From: a virus
Length of the DNA: 18,524 nt
Strand: one strand, 5' to 3'
Virus genome (UHGV): UHGV-0203747
How positions within the stretch are numbered: position 1 is the first letter of the stretch; every line of letters begins with the position of its first letter. The notes below the pieces were generated by a model, which was not told the origin of the DNA, did no database searches, and worked only from the letters and a program-made list of their open reading frames with translations. Position numbers and translations under genes: made by a program. Of this stretch, positions 8,118 through 18,524 are shown one piece after another.

Positions 8118-8965
8118 TACTGCTCCGCGATTATCTTGATGGTTGTGGCAGTAAACGCCGCACCATTTGACTGAATGGTTAACGTACTGCCATTTGTGGC
8201 AAGAAATCCGTCTTTATCCACGCTGAAGAACGTAGCTAACAGGATGTTATCGGTTGTTGTCGCCGCATTACGACTGCTGACCAACGTGTCAGGAACAGAG
8301 CCGGAAAAGGTTAGCTGCATTGATCTGTTGGCGGTTCCGCTGGGCCATGTCCCGACAATCGACAGCTTGAAGAGCAAGGTTTTGTTCTCGTTGAACACAA
8401 CCATCTTGTTGTTAACGGTGTCGAAGAATGGTGCCAACGTCCCGGATGACGGCGTGAGCGTTTTCAGCAGGCTAACAAGGTTGGTCGGCGCTGTCGGGAT
8501 GGTTACAGATACGCCAGAGTAAACAACCTCTGACTTCTTGCGAGTAGTGGCATACTCCAGAGCATCGATGCGCGTTTCATGGTCTGAAACCTGCGATTCC
8601 AGCGACTGAACTCTGGTATCAAGCGACGCAATATCGCTTTCATTCTGAGCTATTCGTGTTTCATGTTCCTGAAGAGTTGATTCTGCCTGGCTAATTCGCT
8701 CCTCATGATTAACAAGCGTTGCTTCCGCAGCAGAAATTCGCTGCTCATGGTCAGCGAGAATCACATCCTGCTCATCGTTCCTGACCTGTGCATCATAAGC
8801 GCCCTGTCCGGCCTCGTTGGCCTTGTTAGCCACGTTACCAACATCAGTGCCCTGTGCGATAACGTAAAGCAGATACGACTGCGAGAAGATATTGCGTGGA
8901 AGGACTGATGTGTCGAGCCGTGTAGCCTGAATGATTACCGGCACATTGAGATTCGAATCAGCCAT
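8117..8965 (-). CDS. Tail needle (P22 gp26-like) with extended coiled coil and C-terminal knob domain (Sf6 type)
   Basis: 282-aa ORF, ATG at 8965..8963. N-terminus [43 protein letters not shown] closely matches the P22 gp26 N-terminus as recalled. Residues ~70-130 carry 14-residue periodic repeats (DHEQRIS / NHEERIS / EHETRIA / DHETRID). The extra ~50 C-terminal residues relative to P22 gp26 (233 aa) are consistent with an Sf6-type knob. Confidence 0.85.
8570..8760 (-). repeat. In-frame ~42-bp periodic repeats inside the tail-needle gene, encoding the trimeric coiled-coil heptad pairs
   Basis: Plus-strand motif tcatg recurs at 8661, 8703 and 8745 (42-bp spacing) and near 8578, each within similar flanks (cgtgtttcatgttcctgaag, cgctcctcatgattaacaag, cgctgctcatggtcagcgag). 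Coding repeat, not an independent element. Boundaries are approximate. Confidence 0.5.
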
Positions 8966-10383
8966 TACTCAATCCTTATCTGGCAGCCAGAAAGAGTGAC
9001 AGGTGACTTCGTGATAACGCGCAATTTGAAGCCAATGTTTTTCCTGATGCGCCCGACACGCTTCCACAAAACACGCTTGTCGTAAACGAACGGTTCATTC
9101 TGCTCAATCATCTGCTCACGCCCGTAATTGATTCCGTCAGTGGTTGCAGATAGGAACAGGCGATCGGCGTACTGAGCTACGCCAGTGGATGATTCCACCT
9201 CCAGATCGAAGCATCTGGCGTTATCCGCTTTGAACAGTGGAGTAAACAGCAGGTGTTCCTGTTGAAGCCCATACTGGCTGCTGATATCGAACTGCAATTT
9301 GCCGGTAACCGATTCCAGCTTATCGCCGCACGTTATCTGATTGCCTTCGTAAATGAAGTCGATAGCGCGGTACACATCGTCATACAAGCCAGTTTTCAAC
9401 ACACACCATTGCGGACCATTGGCGCTTGAAGATGCGTCGTACACGAGGACGTGGCGCGGAAGGTGGATAATCAGCAACTCATGAGCATCAAATCGTAGAG
9501 ACTCCATCACGCCATCAGCCAGTTCATCAGCAGTGTAGGAGCGGAGGATTTTCTCAATGCTCGCGCTGGCGATTGGTGATACCTGACCGGAGCCGATGAT
9601 GTAAACAGACGGCGCACCTGTTGCCGGATTGCTGATGAACGCATAAGAATCAGCGAATGGCGTTTTGCAGTAAGTCCCGGCAATGCCTTTCTGCACCATA
9701 AGAGATGGCTGTGCGACATACAAAGCAGCACCAACGGTGGTTGCCCCCGTCAGGGAGAAATATTCAATCGTTGATGAACCAAAGCAGACAATGAAGTCTC
9801 GCCATGTTCCGATGCCGATGATACCGTCAGGCTGAGACTCGGCACGATATTGTGCGCTGTATCGGTCAGGATGTGATTCGTCTTCAAGGTCAGTGATAAA
9901 CCATGAATCAGTGCCGTCTTTTGACCACGCATAACGCCCACGTAAGCGTGTAATGTCGCGGACTGAACCTAACTCATACTGCGTGAATCCGCTGTCTGTA
10001 GGCCAGTTTGAGACGGTTTTAACCGTACCATCATAGCGATACTCGACCAGTTGACCATTAACGCCTACAGCCTGTGATGTCCGACCATGTGCCATTGATA
10101 CGCGACCACTTCCGGCAACGTCACCGACTTCACTTTCGCCTTTGTAGAGCTTGCCACCACACACGCGATAAACAGCATTCTGCGCCATGTTGTACTCGAC
10201 ACCGCGCGATACACCATTCACATCAGAGCGTTTGGCAATGCCCGGGAATGAGCGAAGATATCCGCTGCTGTTGAGGATTTCTTTGGGTGTAGCCAGCATA
10301 TTCACTGGCAGATAGTCGATATAGTCGGCGTTTCGAAAGTCTTTGCCGACACCTTTCATAAGCGGAAGTTGCTGAATCGGCAT
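8965..10383 (-). CDS. Tail accessory factor / tail hub protein, P22 gp10-like
   Basis: 472-aa ORF (P22 gp10 is also ~472 aa), ATG at 10383..10381 with strong SD GAGGTGA 4 nt upstream. Syntenic between the gp4-like and needle genes. Confidence 0.8.
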
Positions 10384-10392
10384 TTATTCACC

Positions 10393-10854
10393 TCACGTAC
10401 TCGGATCATCTTTCTCGATGTAAAACCGATTCCACGTAAACGCGCTTTTGTTACCACTACCGCGAGGCATGTCATTTCGCCGCTCAAGTGGTGGTATTTT
10501 GGTTAAAGCGATGCAAATTGTCTGGTATGCACTGTCAGCAGCGGTAAGGAGAGCGTCTGACGGCTGAATGACGTTATCCATGCACACTTGCACAGCGAGT
10601 TTCAAGGCGACGCCATCATTTGCCCATGCAGGGATACCTGAATCATCGTCAGGTAACGGCATGATGCCGTTTTCTGTATCAGCAAACTGATATCCAAGCT
10701 CGATACCTTTAGCCTGCCATGCTGCCATCATGTCTTCGAGGTCATTAATGGCATCTTCAATTGCCTGAGGGTCAGCATCTGTCAACGTGGCATTGGAATA
10801 CAGCCCGGCTTTTCGTAAAGCCTTAAGAACGAGATCACCCTTCGTTTTCGCCAT
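10393..10854 (-). CDS. Tail accessory / head-completion factor, P22 gp4-like
   Basis: 153-aa ORF, ATG at 10854..10852. N-terminus MAKTKGDLVLKALRKAG...TLTDADPQAIEDAINDLEDMMAAW resembles the P22 gp4 N-terminus as recalled (..KTKGDLV...ATLTD..P...DA.DDLEAMMAEW). Confidence 0.8.
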   Translation of the reverse strand: MAKTKGDLVLKALRKAGLYSNATLTDADPQAIEDAINDLEDMMAAWQAKGIELGYQFADTENGIMPLPDDDSGIPAWANDGVALKLAVQVCMDNVIQPSDALLTAADSAYQTICIALTKIPPLERRNDMPRGSGNKSAFTWNRFYIEKDDPST

Positions 10855-11023
10855 CTTCTTCCGCCTTAGCCACTTTATGCTTCGTTGCGGTTTCTTCAGG
10901 AGTTTTTACCCAGCCTTTTTTCAGGTGAGATTTAACTTCTTCGTCATCAACAATGATGTAATCGACAGCAAACTGACCGCAGGTGATCATGTTGCCAGGC
11001 TTATAGAGCATTGTTCGTGCCAT
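10835..11023 (-). CDS. Small hypothetical protein (62 aa from the ATG; lysine/glutamate-rich C-terminus)
   Basis: ATG at 11023..11021 with SD GGAG 8 nt upstream, placed immediately after the coat terminator. The track's longer 75-aa version starts at a TTG (11062) and would have to be translated through the terminator stem, so I prefer the ATG. Overlaps the gp4-like start by ~20 nt. P22-like genomes carry a small ORF at this position. Confidence 0.45.
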   Translation of the reverse strand: MARTMLYKPGNMITCGQFAVDYIIVDDEEVKSHLKKGWVKTPEETATKHKVAKAEEDGENEG

Positions 11024-11034
11024 TGTCTTCTCCC

Positions 11035-11058
11035 AATAAAAATGGGGCCGAAGCCCCA
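11035..11058 (-). terminator. Rho-independent terminator immediately downstream of the coat gene (probably partial, attenuating read-through)
   Basis: Minus-strand RNA reads UGGGGC-UUCG-GCCCCA (plus 11043-11058): a 6-bp GC-rich stem with a UUCG tetraloop, followed by UUUUUAUU (complement of 11035-11042). It starts 6 nt after the coat stop (11065-11067). Confidence 0.6.
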
Positions 11059-11064
11059 CCAAAA

Positions 11065-12318
11065 TTACTGCCCGGCAATAACGATGCCCGTATATTCAGG
11101 AACCAGTACAGAGCAACCGTACAGAGTGGTGAAACGCGCAGTGGTTACACCTTTGATGTGGTCGAAGGCGTAAGACATGATCAGCGTAGCGCCCTGCTCG
11201 GTGGTTGCTGTCATTACCTGTGGACCCTGACCAGTCGGGAACGCCAGTTTGCCGTACATCAGCTCAACAGAACCATCAGCCCAGAACAGGTTAGCAGGTG
11301 CTGCGTTCTTGTTGAGAATGGTGATTGCTGCTGATGCTGCCGGCTTGGCATCGACGTTTGCATATGGACGACTCGCAACATCGGCATTTTCAACAGGGAG
11401 AATCTTTGGAGAGATTGTTACGGTAGTTCCGCTAACAGCCAGAACACGGAATACCTGCGGTTGCCCGGTGGTATCTTTTGTGATCTGGTGTACGGAATTC
11501 ACACCGGCAATGGTGAACGCATCACCAACCTGCAAGCCAGATGCAGATACCGTAATAGTCCCCTGTCGGTTATCAACTGGCATACCATTTGAATCTTTCG
11601 CTTCAACCTTGTGTTCAGGTTGGCCTGATACCGTCAAGGATTCAGCGCTTCCTTTCGGTAATCGACCAGAAATATCGGTCTTGTAGCTATCAAAGGAAGC
11701 AACCGGAGGGATCTGCGCTTTTTCGTATGCTGTCAGGGTTGCGCCCTGAGCATAGGCACGGTGACCAAGCTCGCCAGCAAGATCTTTGTAGTTGAAGGGG
11801 TTCCAGAAAGAGCGACGGTTGATACCCTGAGGTACACCAATCGCCGTCATGGTGGCATCAATGCCTGCCGCACAGTTCCACAAATCACGGCCCTGTGTAC
11901 CTGTGGTTGAGTCAGCCATCGTGATCACGTTAGTAGCACGCTGCGTGACCATGGAAATCAGGTCAGAGTCAATCTGTGCAGCAAGGCGCATACCTGCGGC
12001 GCGACCAGCTTCAGTTTTATGTTCCGGGTCACGCATTTCACGCGCATCCAGAGTGTACAGAATGTTTTTCGGCTCCTTGAACACAGAAGGAACAAGGCGC
12101 TGAACCAGTGCTGTTGGCGTTTTGCCGCTGAGGTCTAGGCCTTCCTCAATGTTCATGTGGTAATGCTGCGGACGATACAGAACATCACCTGCTCGCTGCA
12201 TTGCTGTATCACCGGGACGGAATTTTTTAGCGTTACGGGAAACTACGCAGGCGGCCTCAAAGCCTTCAACGTAGTTTTCGAACATGATTTCAAGGTCTTT
12301 TGCTAATTGGTTAGCCAT
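11065..12318 (-). CDS. Major capsid (coat) protein, P22 gp5-like
   Basis: 417-aa ORF, ATG at 12318..12316, SD GGAG ~10 nt upstream. Syntenic after the scaffold gene. Several segments resemble P22 coat as recalled (WNPFNYKDLAGEL vs FNPQDYKKAGYDL; NLFWADGSVELM vs NVFWADDAIRIV). Followed by a strong terminator, as expected for the most abundant virion protein. Confidence 0.9.
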   Translation of the reverse strand: MANQLAKDLEIMFENYVEGFEAACVVSRNAKKFRPGDTAMQRAGDVLYRPQHYHMNIEEGLDLSGKTPTALVQRLVPSVFKEPKNILYTLDAREMRDPEHKTEAGRAAGMRLAAQIDSDLISMVTQRATNVITMADSTTGTQGRDLWNCAAGIDATMTAIGVPQGINRRSFWNPFNYKDLAGELGHRAYAQGATLTAYEKAQIPPVASFDSYKTDISGRLPKGSAESLTVSGQPEHKVEAKDSNGMPVDNRQGTITVSASGLQVGDAFTIAGVNSVHQITKDTTGQPQVFRVLAVSGTTVTISPKILPVENADVASRPYANVDAKPAASAAITILNKNAAPANLFWADGSVELMYGKLAFPTGQGPQVMTATTEQGATLIMSYAFDHIKGVTTARFTTLYGCSVLVPEYTGIVIAGQ

Positions 12319-12336
12319 GCTTAATGCTCCGATAGG

Positions 12337-13230
12337 TTATTTTTTTGCCTTTTTAGCGGCGAAATACGGCGTCCAGTCACCAGTTTCCAGCGCCTTGGCT
12401 TTCAGTTTGTCGAGGTTATTGATTACTGCGCCGTTGCTCCCCTTAACTGTCGGGGTTGTGGCTGCCGTGGTTTTTGCTTTTGGCATGATTCTGGCCTTCG
12501 ATTCGATACGTTCCAGCAGACGACCAATTGCTACGGGGTTGGTAGCTTCTGCCAGTTGCTTGCGCAGTTCAGCGTTGCGACCGAGCGCCAGAACAACGAT
12601 TTCCGGCTTCTCTGACTCAAACAGGATCGCGTTTTGTGTCTCGATGGGGATTTCCTCGAGTACGGCCTGCTCAGCTTCCTGATAGCCAGGAACTTTGAGA
12701 GCCTTAACACGTTGCTGATATTTGGATAATCGCTCTTGATAGGCAGCCTGAAGCTCCTGCTCCTTCTGCTTGCGAGCCATCTCCTGTTGCTGGTACTTGC
12801 CGTTATCCTCTGCCCACTTAGCCATGCGTTGCTGGTAGATTTCTTCATCGAAACCGATGTCCTCATCATCCAGTTTTGGCATTCGCGGTGGTTGAGTGAT
12901 TACCGGCTGCTGCTCGACGGGTTTCTGAGACTGACGCATCAGCTCTTTCAGCTCGCGATCTTTCTCTTTAATCGTCTTGCGCAGGTGTTTTACCAGTCCA
13001 TGCTCTGCGCTATCTTCGCTGGTTGGCGAATCCAGCTTTTCGTCACCAAAGTAGAATTCCTGTTCTGATTCGTCGTCATCAGTTTCAGTAGCTTCCTCTG
13101 CATCATTGCCAGAGGACTCACTGCCATCTTCTGTTTCGACTTCTTCAGCCAGTTCGACATCATCAGGAATCTGCTCTGACGCGTCGGTTTCGATTTCAAC
13201 TTCTGGTGTGTTTTCTGCCATCTGGTCCAT
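12337..13230 (-). CDS. Scaffolding protein, P22 gp8-like
   Basis: 297-aa ORF, ATG at 13230..13228 (alternative in-frame ATG at 13221). Lies between portal and coat. Long charged helical middle region and a basic C-terminal helix-turn-helix-like tail (..DKLKAKALETGDWTPYFAAKKAKK) comparable to the coat-binding end of P22 gp8. The first ~70 residues are extremely acidic. Confidence 0.85.
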   Translation of the reverse strand: MDQMAENTPEVEIETDASEQIPDDVELAEEVETEDGSESSGNDAEEATETDDDESEQEFYFGDEKLDSPTSEDSAEHGLVKHLRKTIKEKDRELKELMRQSQKPVEQQPVITQPPRMPKLDDEDIGFDEEIYQQRMAKWAEDNGKYQQQEMARKQKEQELQAAYQERLSKYQQRVKALKVPGYQEAEQAVLEEIPIETQNAILFESEKPEIVVLALGRNAELRKQLAEATNPVAIGRLLERIESKARIMPKAKTTAATTPTVKGSNGAVINNLDKLKAKALETGDWTPYFAAKKAKK

Positions 13231-13320
13231 TTGTTACCCCTGTTTACTCGATGTTCAGCCCATCGGAAGGCAATAGGGTGCCAGGCCTCATAAAGACAGC
13301 CATTGCACGTTATGGGTTAA

Positions 13321-15519
13321 TTACTGCTGTGGTTGTTGCCGGGTTGATTTTTGCAGGATGCTGCTGATGTCCATGCGCTGCGCATGGCCCTGTGCCTGAC
13401 TTTTCAGGACAAGCTCTGCATCAGCACGGGCATTGTCTCCTTGCTGTTGCTGGAACTGTCCGAGCAGTTTCAGAGCCTCGCGGATATCAGATTTCTGCTG
13501 GCTATCGGCAGATGCGAGTATTTTCACAACATTTGCCGCTGCAACCTGAGCATCAGTCTGTGCCTGGAATGCTTTAACCTGAATGGCTGCCTGTTCGTTC
13601 TGCGCTTTCTGCAATTCAGCCTGACCAGCAAGAAGCTGACCTTGCGCTGCAACCATAGCCGGATCTGGCTGACTGGCCTGTTGTTGTTTCGCCTGTTCAA
13701 CCATCTGCTGCTCTTCAGGCGTTCTCGGCTTGATAACGCCAGACAGAAGCAACTGATTGCGGTTGTATTCTTTCAGGTCGTCCATCCCTTCGCCGTCCAT
13801 ATTGTCGAGAATCATCGACGATACAAGGTCGTGCTTCGGAGTTCCTGGTGGGATAAGTGCCAGCATGGAAAGTAACGACTTAACCGTTGCATCACGGCGA
13901 GTAGCGAACGACTGGCCAACATCGACAGTCACTTCATAGTTACCCTGCGAAAGGTCATTAAGCGCGATAACCTGCCCTGTCTGACGGTCAACCACTTCAC
14001 CAGTCATCAGCGCCACGTCATCGCTGCCGTCCTCATTAACGATACGCATCGGCGTATCACTGCCATAGACTTCACGAGCCATAGAAAGCCACACGACGCC
14101 AGCACGGCGCATGGATTTAGCCATGTTGTCCATGTAGATATAGGACTGCGTGTCCATCCGGTTAAAGATGCTATCAACGGTATCGGTAGCGACGTTGCTC
14201 GGCATGTTCTCAAGCTGCGACGCACCTGTAATTTGCTGAATAGCCGTTCCGGTGTACTGCAATAGCCCGGCAAGAGCAGGAGGCATTTGTGTCGGAGGTG
14301 TCCAGCCAGCAACCTGAGCCTCTGAAATGACCGTTCCGTTTTTGTCCTTCTTGCTGGTCATGGGAAGAACTGCAGGTCTTTTCTTATTCCTCTCTGCCCA
14401 GTGATTCATTAATGGGCCGGGAATGAAATCAACATCCACGATAGGAATGCCATCACCGCCAGCCTGAGTAGCGTTATCTGCAATCATGGAAACCATCAGG
14501 TTCTCAAGACGCTGTGCATCCATCGCTTTTGCTGCGTGGCCTTCGATTCGCTCCTGATTATCAACAAATGAGCGACGCCCATATACCGGGATGAGAGGAA
14601 TATGTTCACCCGGAATACGCTTCGGTTCTTCCAGCCATTCAGCGCCAGACAGAAGACCGCAATAAACTCTGCGTTTCTTCACTGTCCTCTCACCGATCAG
14701 CTCGAATGCACCATCGGTTAGCTCGTCAACAATATCTTTGATTTGCTCTTCATCATAGATTGCCGTTTCTCCGCTAACAGGGTTACGCCATGCTGTGAGC
14801 TTCACCTTCTCTATGCGAACTTCGTAGTAGCGTCCAACATAGATGGCATCAGGCGTTGACCAGTCATATTGAGTGCCAGTGTCATCACGAGAAAGGCTTG
14901 CCGCGATGGAATCAGGGTATTCAGCCTCGAACGCTTTAGGCGTCATGGAGAACATTTCCATAGCCCACATAGCATCAGAGCGGTCATATTGCTTGCTGTC
15001 CTGATCGAAGAAGACGCATGTCGCTGGGTCGTAAACAGGAAGAAGGCTGATGCGGCGCTGCTCGTTACTCGGATCCATTTCATCTTCGTAATCGGCACAC
15101 ATGCGGAAACAACCGAATCCGCCCGTTACAGCATCATCAAATGCGTTATCACACGCTTCACCACCGGATGTTTCCTGATAGTCAGCGCGGAATTTGCCGT
15201 TCATCTTTTCGGCTAACGCTTCCGATGCCTTGTCATCCTTCGGCCTGAATTTAACGCTGATGCGATTCTGTCGATACTCGCCAATGATGCGATCACATTC
15301 ACGGGCAATCTTATTCAGTTCAAAACGCGGGTAATGCTCAAACCTGCCCTCATCAAACGAGTAACCAGCGTTTGTGCTACCTTCCCACTGTGCGCCGGAC
15401 ACCCTGACGAAACGTTTAGCCTCAATAATCTGCTCACGCATATCCTGCGTTGCTGACCAGGCATTATCAAAGTTGCACAGCACCTTGCGATGCCAGTCAG
15501 CCATCTTTTTTTCTGCCAT
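13321..15519 (-). CDS. Portal protein, P22 gp1-like
   Basis: 732-aa ORF, ATG at 15519..15517, 1 nt after the large-terminase stop. Immediately downstream of the terminase genes. C-terminal region (PEEQQ...PDPAMVAAQGQLLAGQAELQKAQNEQ...RADAELVLKSQAQGHAQRMDI) closely parallels the P22 portal C-terminal barrel as recalled. Confidence 0.9.
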   Translation of the reverse strand: MAEKKMADWHRKVLCNFDNAWSATQDMREQIIEAKRFVRVSGAQWEGSTNAGYSFDEGRFEHYPRFELNKIARECDRIIGEYRQNRISVKFRPKDDKASEALAEKMNGKFRADYQETSGGEACDNAFDDAVTGGFGCFRMCADYEDEMDPSNEQRRISLLPVYDPATCVFFDQDSKQYDRSDAMWAMEMFSMTPKAFEAEYPDSIAASLSRDDTGTQYDWSTPDAIYVGRYYEVRIEKVKLTAWRNPVSGETAIYDEEQIKDIVDELTDGAFELIGERTVKKRRVYCGLLSGAEWLEEPKRIPGEHIPLIPVYGRRSFVDNQERIEGHAAKAMDAQRLENLMVSMIADNATQAGGDGIPIVDVDFIPGPLMNHWAERNKKRPAVLPMTSKKDKNGTVISEAQVAGWTPPTQMPPALAGLLQYTGTAIQQITGASQLENMPSNVATDTVDSIFNRMDTQSYIYMDNMAKSMRRAGVVWLSMAREVYGSDTPMRIVNEDGSDDVALMTGEVVDRQTGQVIALNDLSQGNYEVTVDVGQSFATRRDATVKSLLSMLALIPPGTPKHDLVSSMILDNMDGEGMDDLKEYNRNQLLLSGVIKPRTPEEQQMVEQAKQQQASQPDPAMVAAQGQLLAGQAELQKAQNEQAAIQVKAFQAQTDAQVAAANVVKILASADSQQKSDIREALKLLGQFQQQQGDNARADAELVLKSQAQGHAQRMDISSILQKSTRQQPQQ

Positions 15520-15520
15520 A

Positions 15521-16936
15521 TCAACCTACACCACAAGGAATTGAGTAACTGGAATAGTCGGGTTGCGCAGCCGACTCCGGGCAATGCATACACATCATCA
15601 GCGCATCAGCCAGGTTAGGAGATGGAATACCGAGCTTCTGCTTCATTTCGACCTTAGTCATTAGCTCCAGCTTCCCGTTGTTATTGAATTTGCGCTGAAT
15701 CTGCGTCAGTTCTGCAAACAGCTTCTCCAGCATCTTCTCGCCTATCGCTTCTTTGTCGAAACTCAGCATGTCGTCGGGGTCTGCATACTCACCGTAGACA
15801 ACCGCCCGATATGTCAGATACAGCCTGTCAGCCAGCGCGTAATAGAATTGCGCTCGCTTATTGCGGAACACATCGCCAATAGTGCGAACGTTGTCGCCCT
15901 GTACGACTTCATCAGCCCATGCTCCGGCCTGATACGGAGCATCTTCATCGAATGGCGATTCGCTGCCCTTGAACATCGTGGCGGTGATTTTCTTGCCGGA
16001 GAACGCTTCCGTTGTCTGTCTGCGTAGCCCAGCACCAACACCATCACCATCCCACAGGTAGTGGTCAGCGCCGTCTTCAATCGCCAGCGAAGTAGCCCAG
16101 TCAGCACCCTCGTTGATGTCCATCAGCAGACCTTCGGCAATGCGCTTAACTACCGAACCGTGACGCGATGCATAACCTTTAGCATCTGGTCCTGTATCTG
16201 ACGGGTCATGCGCAGAGACAACAGCGCCTTTCGCTTTCCATCCGAGTTTCTTGTGCGCATCGGTTGCGGCTTCAAGCCATTCACGTTTGATGATTGCCAT
16301 ATCACTTGCGCTTACTGGCTCACCAAGCCAGATGTGACGATACAGTGTCGGATTTCTGCGTTTACACTCTTCCATCTCCAGACGGAGAACTTCAGGAAAG
16401 TGCGGGTTGTCGGTGTAGTTCACCGTCAGCAGACAAATATCATCAGGAGGGTTTACGACGAATCGCTGATAGGTATCGTCGAGGATGTTTTTCGGGTTGA
16501 AGCTTACCCATATTTCAGAGAACGGCTTACGGATGGTTGGTATCAGAATATCCCACGATTCCTTCGTTACCGCTTCCGCTTCCTCCACCCAGCAGATATC
16601 AATACCTTCGAGCGATTTAATTTTTGTCGGGTTGTTTTTTATGCCGTAGAACATGAATTCAGCATTCGTTCCGAGATGACGGATCATTGAACGCTGAATT
16701 TCAAACTCAGCCGAATACCCTTCACGCTCGATGGTATCTTCAAGCAAACGGATTACCGAATCGCTGATACTGTTTTGCAGTTCACGAGCGCAGAGAATAC
16801 GCACTGGCTGACGACGCGCCGCTTCAACAAGCAGCCTCGCAATTGCCCATGATTTGCCGCTACCTCGACCGCCTTTGGCGACTTTGTAGCGATGCGCCTC
16901 AATGAACGGTTCAAAGATAGGATTAATCGAGGTCAT
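15521..16936 (-). CDS. Terminase large subunit (ATPase + nuclease)
   Basis: 471-aa ORF, ATG at 16936..16934, overlapping the small-subunit stop as ATGA. Walker A motif GGRGSGKS near the N-terminus; acidic residues consistent with Walker B and the nuclease domain. Size matches Sf6/P22-type large terminases (~470-500 aa). Confidence 0.92.
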   Translation of the reverse strand: MTSINPIFEPFIEAHRYKVAKGGRGSGKSWAIARLLVEAARRQPVRILCARELQNSISDSVIRLLEDTIEREGYSAEFEIQRSMIRHLGTNAEFMFYGIKNNPTKIKSLEGIDICWVEEAEAVTKESWDILIPTIRKPFSEIWVSFNPKNILDDTYQRFVVNPPDDICLLTVNYTDNPHFPEVLRLEMEECKRRNPTLYRHIWLGEPVSASDMAIIKREWLEAATDAHKKLGWKAKGAVVSAHDPSDTGPDAKGYASRHGSVVKRIAEGLLMDINEGADWATSLAIEDGADHYLWDGDGVGAGLRRQTTEAFSGKKITATMFKGSESPFDEDAPYQAGAWADEVVQGDNVRTIGDVFRNKRAQFYYALADRLYLTYRAVVYGEYADPDDMLSFDKEAIGEKMLEKLFAELTQIQRKFNNNGKLELMTKVEMKQKLGIPSPNLADALMMCMHCPESAAQPDYSSYSIPCGVG

Positions 16937-17373
16937 TTTCCGAATAGAGTGCTCATCGGTGATGTTTCAATCTGGATTGCGCCGCCGTCTTTGCCTGTTA
17001 GCTCGTGATCAACCTTGTCGCGCCATTTATCCTTCTGTCGGTTCTTAAGCCAGAAGATGGCGGCGGTTGTATCAGGCGGGTAATACTTCTCAAGCGGAGT
17101 TTCGACAATTCTGTTTTCAATAACACGAATATCGATGTCTGGAGCCACGAAGCCCATAGCGCGTTGATAAAGACGGTCACTAACTTCTGCATCAGCGACG
17201 GCCTTACCCTTTTTTATGGACTCCGAAAACTTAGGATAATCAAGCTTCCACTTGTTAATAGTTGACTCACTGACTTCAAAGAAATCAGCAAGTTCTGCGT
17301 CTGTATAGCCCAGCAAGCACAGTTTGCGTGCCTGTTCGGCATACGCCTCTTGATACTTTGTTGGGCGCGCCAT
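16933..17373 (-). CDS. Terminase small subunit
   Basis: 146-aa ORF, ATG at 17373..17371, SD GGAG 8 nt upstream. Directly upstream of and overlapping the large subunit. N-terminal helix-turn-helix-like segment (LGYTDAELADFFEVSESTINKW). Size and position fit an Sf6 gp1-type small terminase. Confidence 0.85.
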   Translation of the reverse strand: MARPTKYQEAYAEQARKLCLLGYTDAELADFFEVSESTINKWKLDYPKFSESIKKGKAVADAEVSDRLYQRAMGFVAPDIDIRVIENRIVETPLEKYYPPDTTAAIFWLKNRQKDKWRDKVDHELTGKDGGAIQIETSPMSTLFGK

Positions 17374-17375
17374 GT

Positions 17376-17618
17376 TTATGCTCCGGTAGTGAACAGGTCT
17401 AACGCTTCCTTCGATTTACGCACCGCTTCGATAGTACGGGTCGTGATATCTGAATTAGCGCCGCCTGACTGGAAGTGAATTTTGAATAGCTCAAGCTTCA
17501 ACTCGTCAGTGCCAATGAACTGAAATGCTTCTTCTGCGGCTGCGTTCTGGTTCATGACCAGTTTGTAAATCTCTAACTGGAATTTCTGTTCTTCAGTCAT
17601 GGGAATAATCTCTGCCAT
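17376..17618 (-). CDS. Hypothetical 80-aa protein immediately upstream of the terminase genes
   Basis: ATG at 17618..17616 with SD GGAG 6 nt upstream. Stop lies 2 nt before the small-terminase ATG. P22-like phages carry a conserved small ORF of this size here. No recognisable motif. Confidence 0.6.
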   Translation of the reverse strand: MAEIIPMTEEQKFQLEIYKLVMNQNAAAEEAFQFIGTDELKLELFKIHFQSGGANSDITTRTIEAVRKSKEALDLFTTGA

Positions 17619-17845
17619 TGTTGGCTCCGTTTATCCGTTAAAAGGGATATCAGTTAAGTTATCCCGTGTAGGGTATAAGCCATTGTCGAGACCACTCATT
17701 GAATGGTCTCTGCAATAACCGATGTCTTTCCATCAGTCCGCCACCACAAAGAATCTTTTTTGCCATAAGACAGGAGGTTCATCTTTCAGTGGCTGCCAGT
17801 GTTATTTCCCCACTTACTGGCTTGGGTTGTTTCGCTGTACTGCCG

Positions 17846-18388
17846 TTAATTGGTGAGTCCGGGGATTACGGTTTGCCCGTGCTGTTCAAGGCGTTCAATT
17901 CTCGCCAGTAGCTGAGGCTTCTTAATTTTTCCCCAGCGATTGAGCAGGCGGCCTGACATGCTGGCAACATCCTTCTCTTTCATGTACTCCAGCATTACGG
18001 CATTTCTCTCTTCTTCAAATTGACGATGACCAACCTGAAGCATGGCGTACATCCAGTTGAATGCGTTGATGTAAGCAATTTTGATACGCATTGCTTCTTT
18101 TTTGGTGTAGGACATAACCAAAAGCATCAACCCATCCTTGCGGAGACGGTAGAATTTTTGCGGCTTACCATTCTGTAACTCATTGTTTTTATAGCAAAGC
18201 TCAAAGTTGAGCTTTGTATCAAACTCAGGAGGGCAAGCTTCTATGGTTCGTTCAATGTCACGAACCACGTTCTTCGGCAGCTTTCCAAATGCTTTTGCCA
18301 CCATAAAAGAATCTGTAACCGGATCGTTGTTTGCTACAAAAATTAGGTCTCTGAAATCTATATCGTTAACAACGGTTGGGTAGTTCAT
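17846..18388 (-). CDS. Rha-family phage regulatory protein
   Basis: 180-aa ORF, ATG at 18388..18386. N-terminal region (DLIFVANNDPVTDSFMVAKAFGKLPKNVVRDIERTIE) fits the Rha N-terminal domain pattern (...T.S..VAE.FGKRH.NVLRDI..L.) as I know it. Sits between the lysis and packaging modules, where rha-like genes occur in P22-like phages. Confidence 0.7.
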   Translation of the reverse strand: MNYPTVVNDIDFRDLIFVANNDPVTDSFMVAKAFGKLPKNVVRDIERTIEACPPEFDTKLNFELCYKNNELQNGKPQKFYRLRKDGLMLLVMSYTKKEAMRIKIAYINAFNWMYAMLQVGHRQFEEERNAVMLEYMKEKDVASMSGRLLNRWGKIKKPQLLARIERLEQHGQTVIPGLTN

Positions 18389-18449
18389 TGCGTCTTTACC
18401 TTTTAGAAAGATGAGCCTGTTCGCACAGAAAAGCCGTCCCCGAGATGGT

Positions 18450-18524
18450 TGAACCGCCCCGGGAATCCTGGAGACTAAACTTCCTGAGAAAGAGGTAAAC
18501 AGGATGACTAAAAATACTCGTTTT
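18450..18524 (+). mobile_element. Left end of an IS3-family insertion sequence (IS629-like), truncated by the window edge; includes the first 7 codons of the transposase OrfA (ATG at 18504)
   Basis: tgaaccgccccgggaatcctggagactaaacttcctgagaaagaggtaaacagg ATG ACT AAA AAT ACT CGT TTT matches, from memory, the IS629 left inverted repeat plus the OrfA start MTKNTRF. It begins with the TG dinucleotide typical of IS3-family ends. Identification is by recall only. Confidence 0.6.

Follow-up and report, generated by a model that had tools for sequence, protein, structure and literature searches.

IS629 is abundant in E. coli and Shigella; it belongs to the IS3 family, where the isoform names IS1203 and IS3411 are also in use, and it transposes by a copy-out/paste-in route with an OrfAB DDE transposase made by −1 frameshifting. 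Its insertions into prophages are well documented, both as drivers of prophage decay and in strain typing, and prophages or prophage-like elements contain 62% of the IS629 copies in O157:H7 (PMC3271280). Lambdoid Stx prophages of O157:H7 harbor the element in genes or at intergenic positions, with effects that depend on position, and the inducible Stx phages phiPA2 and phiPA8 carry it (PMC10810198). A second described case is the P22-like phage Sf6, which is known to form plaques and carries IS911, an IS3-family element of ~1.3 kb that lies antisense to the antiterminated early-right (nin) operon and disrupts ninG. Close relatives without an IS at the position considered here are CUS-3, the argW prophage of UTI89, and vB_EcoP-720R6.

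We analyzed a stretch of 18,524 nt from the viral genome UHGV-0203747 (hereafter, the window), whose right end carries what we identify as the beginning of IS629, next to the late genes of a P22-like prophage. In its visible part, the element is without difference from the IS629 of E. coli and Shigella, with the same 75 nt, TG start, inverted repeat, orfA start, and preference for prophage targets, whereas the insertion site itself occurs in none of the collections searched. Over 47% of its length, the window matches Sf6 with 95.8% identity, and the late-gene order is the same; both P22-like genomes also contain an IS3-family element of ~1.3 kb that lies antisense to an operon under antitermination. 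However, IS911 interrupts a gene of the early-right operon in Sf6, whereas IS629 lies in the late operon and in a non-coding spacer, and the window prophage, unlike plaque-forming Sf6, is known here from sequence alone. The O157:H7 Stx phages share the same IS but are long-tailed or 933W-like, and their documented IS629 copies sit in early or regulatory regions, not in the spacer between the lysis genes and rha. CUS-3, the UTI89 prophage, and 720R6 are 95–99% identical to the window across the rha, terminase, and head genes and contain the same spacer up to the insertion point, but they have different tailspikes, and none matches the wzy-like region (window positions 1 to ~3156).

The preliminary description had identified the end of the window as the left inverted repeat and OrfA start of IS629, oriented opposite to the phage late genes, and the comparison bears this out base for base. 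Positions 18450–18524 (+ strand) coincide with the first 75 nt of the annotated 'IS3 family IS629' feature (1310 bp) of LC567824.1, an Stx2 phage that served as the source of the reference annotation, with 0 mismatches. The element starts at 18450 with TG, reading TGAACCGCCCC, and the transition from phage to IS629 at the window end reads ...GAGATGGT / TGAACCGCCCCGGGAATCCTGGAGACTAAACTTCCTGAGAAAGAGGTAAACAGGATGACTAAAAATACTCGTTTT. The core of the left inverted repeat, TGAACCGCCCCGGGAATCCTGGAGA (18450–18474), fits the reference IRL and matches the reverse complement of the right inverted repeat of the reference copy at 23/25 positions; the right end of the window copy lies beyond the window. The orfA ATG is located at 18504, 54 nt from the IS629 tip, with the same spacing as in the reference copy, and the seven codons that fall in the window (18504–18524, + strand) encode MTKNTRF, identical to the annotated OrfA start. 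IS629 occupies the + strand, with orfA directed away from rha, and all phage genes in the window are on the − strand. Taking at least 95% nucleotide identity as the mark of the IS629 family, the window sequence qualifies with 75/75 nt, on the 6% of the element that it contains (75/1310 nt); the other 1235 nt lie past the window end.

Among 5,426 complete E. coli genomes, 3,553 contain the same 75-nt end with 100% identity (E = 1e-30), at 22,808 places in all, and the copies are annotated there as IS3 family transposase. Other copies identical across the 75 nt contain complete orfA and orfB with a −1 frameshift, and a full copy with these 75 nt in the related locus L002 (3001–4310) is 99.5% identical over 1310 bp to the IS629 feature of LC567824.1. 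Together, the 75/75 match, the repeat, and the orfA codons put the proposed match far beyond chance, and the last 75 bases of the window are confirmed, by this identity, as the left end of IS629.

Judged from its ORFs and relatives, the phage portion of the window is an Sf6/CUS-3-like, P22-like Lederbergvirus prophage of E. coli inserted at the argW-side site. The gene nearest to the IS, on the − strand like all the others, is an intact rha-like ORF (17846–18388) of 180 aa with Phage_pRha and ORF11CD3 domains (Pfam PF09669/PF10549); a protein identical to its product is annotated as a Rha family transcriptional regulator. It is followed by the genes for a DUF2560 protein (17376–17618), the small terminase (16933–17373), the large terminase (15521–16936), and the portal (13321–15519), then by scaffold, coat, head-completion, needle, and ejection proteins (between 3662 and 13230), and finally by the tailspike (1317–3497). 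These downstream late genes (1317–17618) are all full length, with ORF lengths equal to those called in the relatives. On the downstream side of the IS, 16 phage ORFs were examined and none is truncated, so we see no sign of prophage decay.

The best genome matches are UTI89/CUS-3-type E. coli prophages, with 99% identity over positions 17300–18449. Window positions 1–13497 recur with 100% identity in two contigs, L014 and L015, and in both the prophage integrase adjoins yfdC, vacJ, and fadL, the argW-side site used by CUS-3. Proteins exactly matching the portal and tailspike are labelled Escherichia coli (NCBI), and, together with the 99% DNA identity to E. coli prophages, they identify the host, at the level of sequence comparison, as E. 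coli, in agreement with the Escherichia host proposed earlier. A Shigella source, proposed alongside it, is less likely given the E. coli label of the exact proteins, in collections without a separate Shigella genome set.

Several other features of this prophage group were observed along the way. At the left end of the window, which cuts it, a gene for a 453-aa WzyE-family (PF06899) membrane protein (1–1314, − strand) starts 3 bp after the tailspike stop and has a GC content of 33%, versus about 50% for the phage; it is complete in L014 (12184–13545), where it is followed by the integrase. A possible role of this gene is that of an O-antigen polymerase or of serotype-conversion cargo suited to this rare tailspike. 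Three sibling prophage contigs, L016 (1–230), L017 (1–28), and L044, break at window position 5191, inside the gp16-like ejection gene (3662–5659), and from there down match the window with 100% identity; L016 begins with a fragment of an HTH-transposase (IS). The breakpoint and the transposase fragment indicate a separate IS insertion at ~5191 in the siblings that is absent from the window copy. In some relatives, the gp10 (Phage_stabilise) gene has a NUMOD4/HNH_3 endonuclease gene (181–194 aa) next to it or, apparently, inside it (L035, 12077–12661; L032, 7540–8124; L008, 19626–20171; L023, 18443–18988). This placement suggests a mobile homing endonuclease, which is absent from the window. 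IS-bounded decay is found in the related P22-like prophages L002, L006, and L026.

The uninterrupted form of the locus is preserved in UTI89, 720R6, and Sf6, which share the order Q, PR', holin, endolysin, Rz/Rz1, a 50-aa ORF, a spacer of ~205 bp, and rha, with tRNAs between PR' and holin in some relatives. A near-consensus promoter (TTGACA-18-CATAAT) overlaps the 3' end of Q in the relatives, the position expected for PR', and rha, DUF2560, and terminase genes lie downstream of the IS site. Because this order puts the site between the lysis genes and rha, the insertion is placed, by synteny, inside the Q-dependent late unit, and no promoter-like site was found in positions 17300–18524. The location first described for the IS, between the expected lysis/late-promoter region and the packaging genes, matches the gene order of the uninterrupted relatives.

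In the relatives, the first element of the spacer is an intrinsic terminator, made up of AGCCTCGCATTCGCGGGGCT and a T-rich sequence after it, and the IS site lies ~92 bp downstream of this terminator. An intrinsic terminator within the late unit implies that this unit must be read by Q-modified polymerase. Past the terminator, the uninterrupted spacer folds into a long imperfect hairpin (z = −3.0), seen in L046 (2160–2372, − strand), whose inverted-repeat arms of ~19 bp, ...AGAAAGCTGAGCCTG / CAGGCTCATCTTTCT..., extend into the ribosome-binding region of rha. Scanned against Rfam, the window and phage 720R6 gave only the 720R6 phage tRNAs and nothing at the spacer. In the predicted fold, IS629 would sit in the apex of this hairpin, and all that the window would keep of it is the 3' arm, which together with the ribosome-binding region of rha occupies the remaining 61 bp of the lysis–rha spacer (18389–18449, − strand). 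The hairpin could be a regulator of rha translation or a protein-binding site, and a preference of IS629 for hairpin apices of this kind is a remote possibility. The 61-bp distance between the IS tip (18450) and the rha ATG (18388, − strand) is as first described, and the flank itself is 100% identical to vB_EcoP-720R6 and to five other loci.

The place of rha is occupied by different genes in similar phages. Between the lysis cassette and the DUF2560/small terminase genes of L018–L043, a span equivalent to window positions ~17620–18450, the listed matches contain rha itself, KilA-N, T5orf172, gp49_66, Tad2-like, trypsin-like, or DUF551 genes, or nothing; the Tad2-like gene belongs to PF11195, an anti-defence-type family. 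L043 represents the same phage, with just 4 mismatches to the window in 12.4 kb, yet KilA-N replaces rha, with a boundary near 17695. Judged by this turnover, the lysis-to-DUF2560 slot is a cargo hot spot, and rha is an accessory, non-essential cargo gene. Several draft contigs of this phage stop just downstream of rha, among them L014, ending at ~17659, and L044, starting at 17830, which suggests additional copies of the rha/lysis segment in other prophages of the same genomes.

The point of insertion is sharply defined on the phage side. Alignments to UTI89/CUS-3-type prophages, vB_EcoP-720R6, CUS-3, Sf101, and Sf6 all end exactly at 18449. Across the uninterrupted site, UTI89 reads ...GATGGT followed by CGCCACCATATACGG, and the relatives read GATGGT followed by CGCCACC... 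The IS tip therefore adjoins GGT (18447–18449), the expected left copy of a 3–4 bp target-site duplication, which would be TGGT if 4 bp long. This assignment, which we infer from the uninterrupted sites, agrees with the 3–4 bp duplications of related IS629 copies: among six independent copies in related prophages, four have duplications of this length (GTA, CATC, TAA, and CTGG), and two, in L002 and L006, are without duplication and form deletion borders.

We consider it rather probable that the window records the simple insertion of a full-length IS629 into the spacer, with the prophage continuing beyond it. The element would have transposed into the non-coding region between the lysis cassette and accessory rha, landing at the apex of the region that forms the hairpin, 61 bp ahead of the rha ATG. 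On the far side of the IS, the most likely sequence is the second GGT/TGGT copy, followed by the 50-aa ORF, Rz, endolysin, holin, PR', and Q. The late transcript, antiterminated by Q, would thereby acquire a 1.3-kb untranslated antisense stretch; late expression would be attenuated at most and not abolished, and the headful-packaged genome would be longer by 1.3 kb. The window itself shows the left junction and which IS is present; that the IS is complete, what its right junction looks like, and how it affects expression are inferred.

A different reading is that IS629 sits at the edge of a deletion or rearrangement mediated by an IS, such that the prophage ends at 18449 and its late genes form a promoterless remnant without lysis, Q, and early regions. 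Related loci document such outcomes. In L002, IS629 (3001–4310) joins a truncated ejection-protein gene to dsdX, and in L006 a minus-strand IS629 copy (gene 12282–13495) stands in place of TerL through gp10, neither with a target duplication; in L026 (8939–9636), an IS1 at the rha slot joins early-left genes directly to the DUF2560 gene. The sibling prophage copies with another IS in the gp16-like gene also mark the lineage as IS-active. However, the 16 intact phage ORFs and the flank identical to that of a phage isolate are as expected for a young event, and the majority of related IS629 copies (4/6) are simple insertions. From the ratio of four simple copies to two deletion-border copies, we regard an IS-bounded rearrangement as possible but unlikely and retain the simple insertion as the probable reading.

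A simple insertion is also compatible with IS629 being strongly polar on late transcription and leaving the prophage unable to make virions, a disabling effect that we consider doubtful on mixed evidence. The preliminary description had taken the IS as probably polar, with a prophage either defective or dependent on IS-derived read-out. Synteny with the relatives puts the IS site inside a single late unit, and a scan for sigma-70-like promoters found none at threshold, on either strand, in positions 17300–18524 or in the whole IS629. IS-derived read-out is consequently left unsupported, and the genes from rha to the tailspike would be reached only via read-through of 1.3 kb of untranslated antisense RNA. 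Weinstock, Riggs and Botstein reportedly defined the late operon of P22 by means of polar Tn1 insertions (Virology, 1980); if so, transposons can be polar in P22-like late operons despite antitermination. A search of the literature on transposon polarity in the P22 late operon returned nothing usable.

Late transcription in this phage group, however, already passes the intrinsic terminator just upstream of the IS site, which points to a Q-antiterminated polymerase, and the antisense strand of IS629 is without a strong terminator, its single weak terminator-like hairpin being within chance expectation. Polymerase loaded with Q resists pausing and termination, and Q-lambda is called a proven polarity suppressor, after Forbes and Herskowitz 1982 (PMC12360218). 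Plaque-forming Sf6 tolerates the antisense IS911 in ninG, upstream of Q, and inducible Stx phages with IS629 exist (PMC10810198). With the upstream terminator, Q-lambda, the IS911 of Sf6, and the 16 intact ORFs taken together, the proposal of a polar insertion and a defective prophage is left without support, and the sequence gives no evidence of IS629 crippling the prophage.

It is very improbable that the junction is an assembly artefact, such as a chimeric contig end in a repeat, or a solo IS end fragment. The window breaks off after 75 nt of a highly repeated element, a stopping point typical of short-read contigs, and the exact portal and tailspike proteins are recorded in 14 contigs each, all of them from draft assemblies and none above 1 Mb. 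Nevertheless, a contig that ends within a repeat leaves the junction itself valid, and here clean phage sequence gives way to the IS precisely at base 1 of its terminal repeat, which is the signature of a real transposition and not of a random chimera. The window end is probably a short-read contig running into the IS repeat. Least probable of all is a reversible switch, in which IS629, placed at the apex of the conserved hairpin spacer, would uncouple rha and all virion genes from Q-dependent transcription until precise excision restored a functional phage, the IS-excision enhancer known from EHEC being a possible promoter of such excision.

The insertion appears to be specific to the strain. 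None of the 5,426 complete E. coli genomes contains the IS–rha junction, and exact junction scans gave zero hits in the GTDB species representatives, IMG/VR viral contigs, and JGI metagenomes. The predicted right junction (IS629 right end, then (T)GGT and CGCCACCATATACGG) was likewise searched in the IMG/VR viral contigs, with zero hits. The portal and tailspike contigs listed, of the 14 on record for each protein, end before the junction or contain a different cargo gene. The Rha, small terminase, large terminase, and coat proteins are far more common, with exact matches in 373 to 15,653 blocks, and for each protein the examination covered the 24 blocks on the longest contigs. The lack of the junction in all collections searched argues for a strain-specific event, and the 61-bp flank identical to 720R6, along with the 16 intact ORFs, argues for a recent event in a non-decayed prophage.

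On balance, the annotation-level reading of the preliminary description is right, and its functional claim of polarity stands unproven. An IS629 copy in a prophage spacer is an ordinary, expected event and nothing new in kind. Its value lies in annotation, in that the window ends in a repeated IS and the host is an IS629-bearing E. coli, whose Sf6/CUS-3-like prophage may or may not remain inducible.
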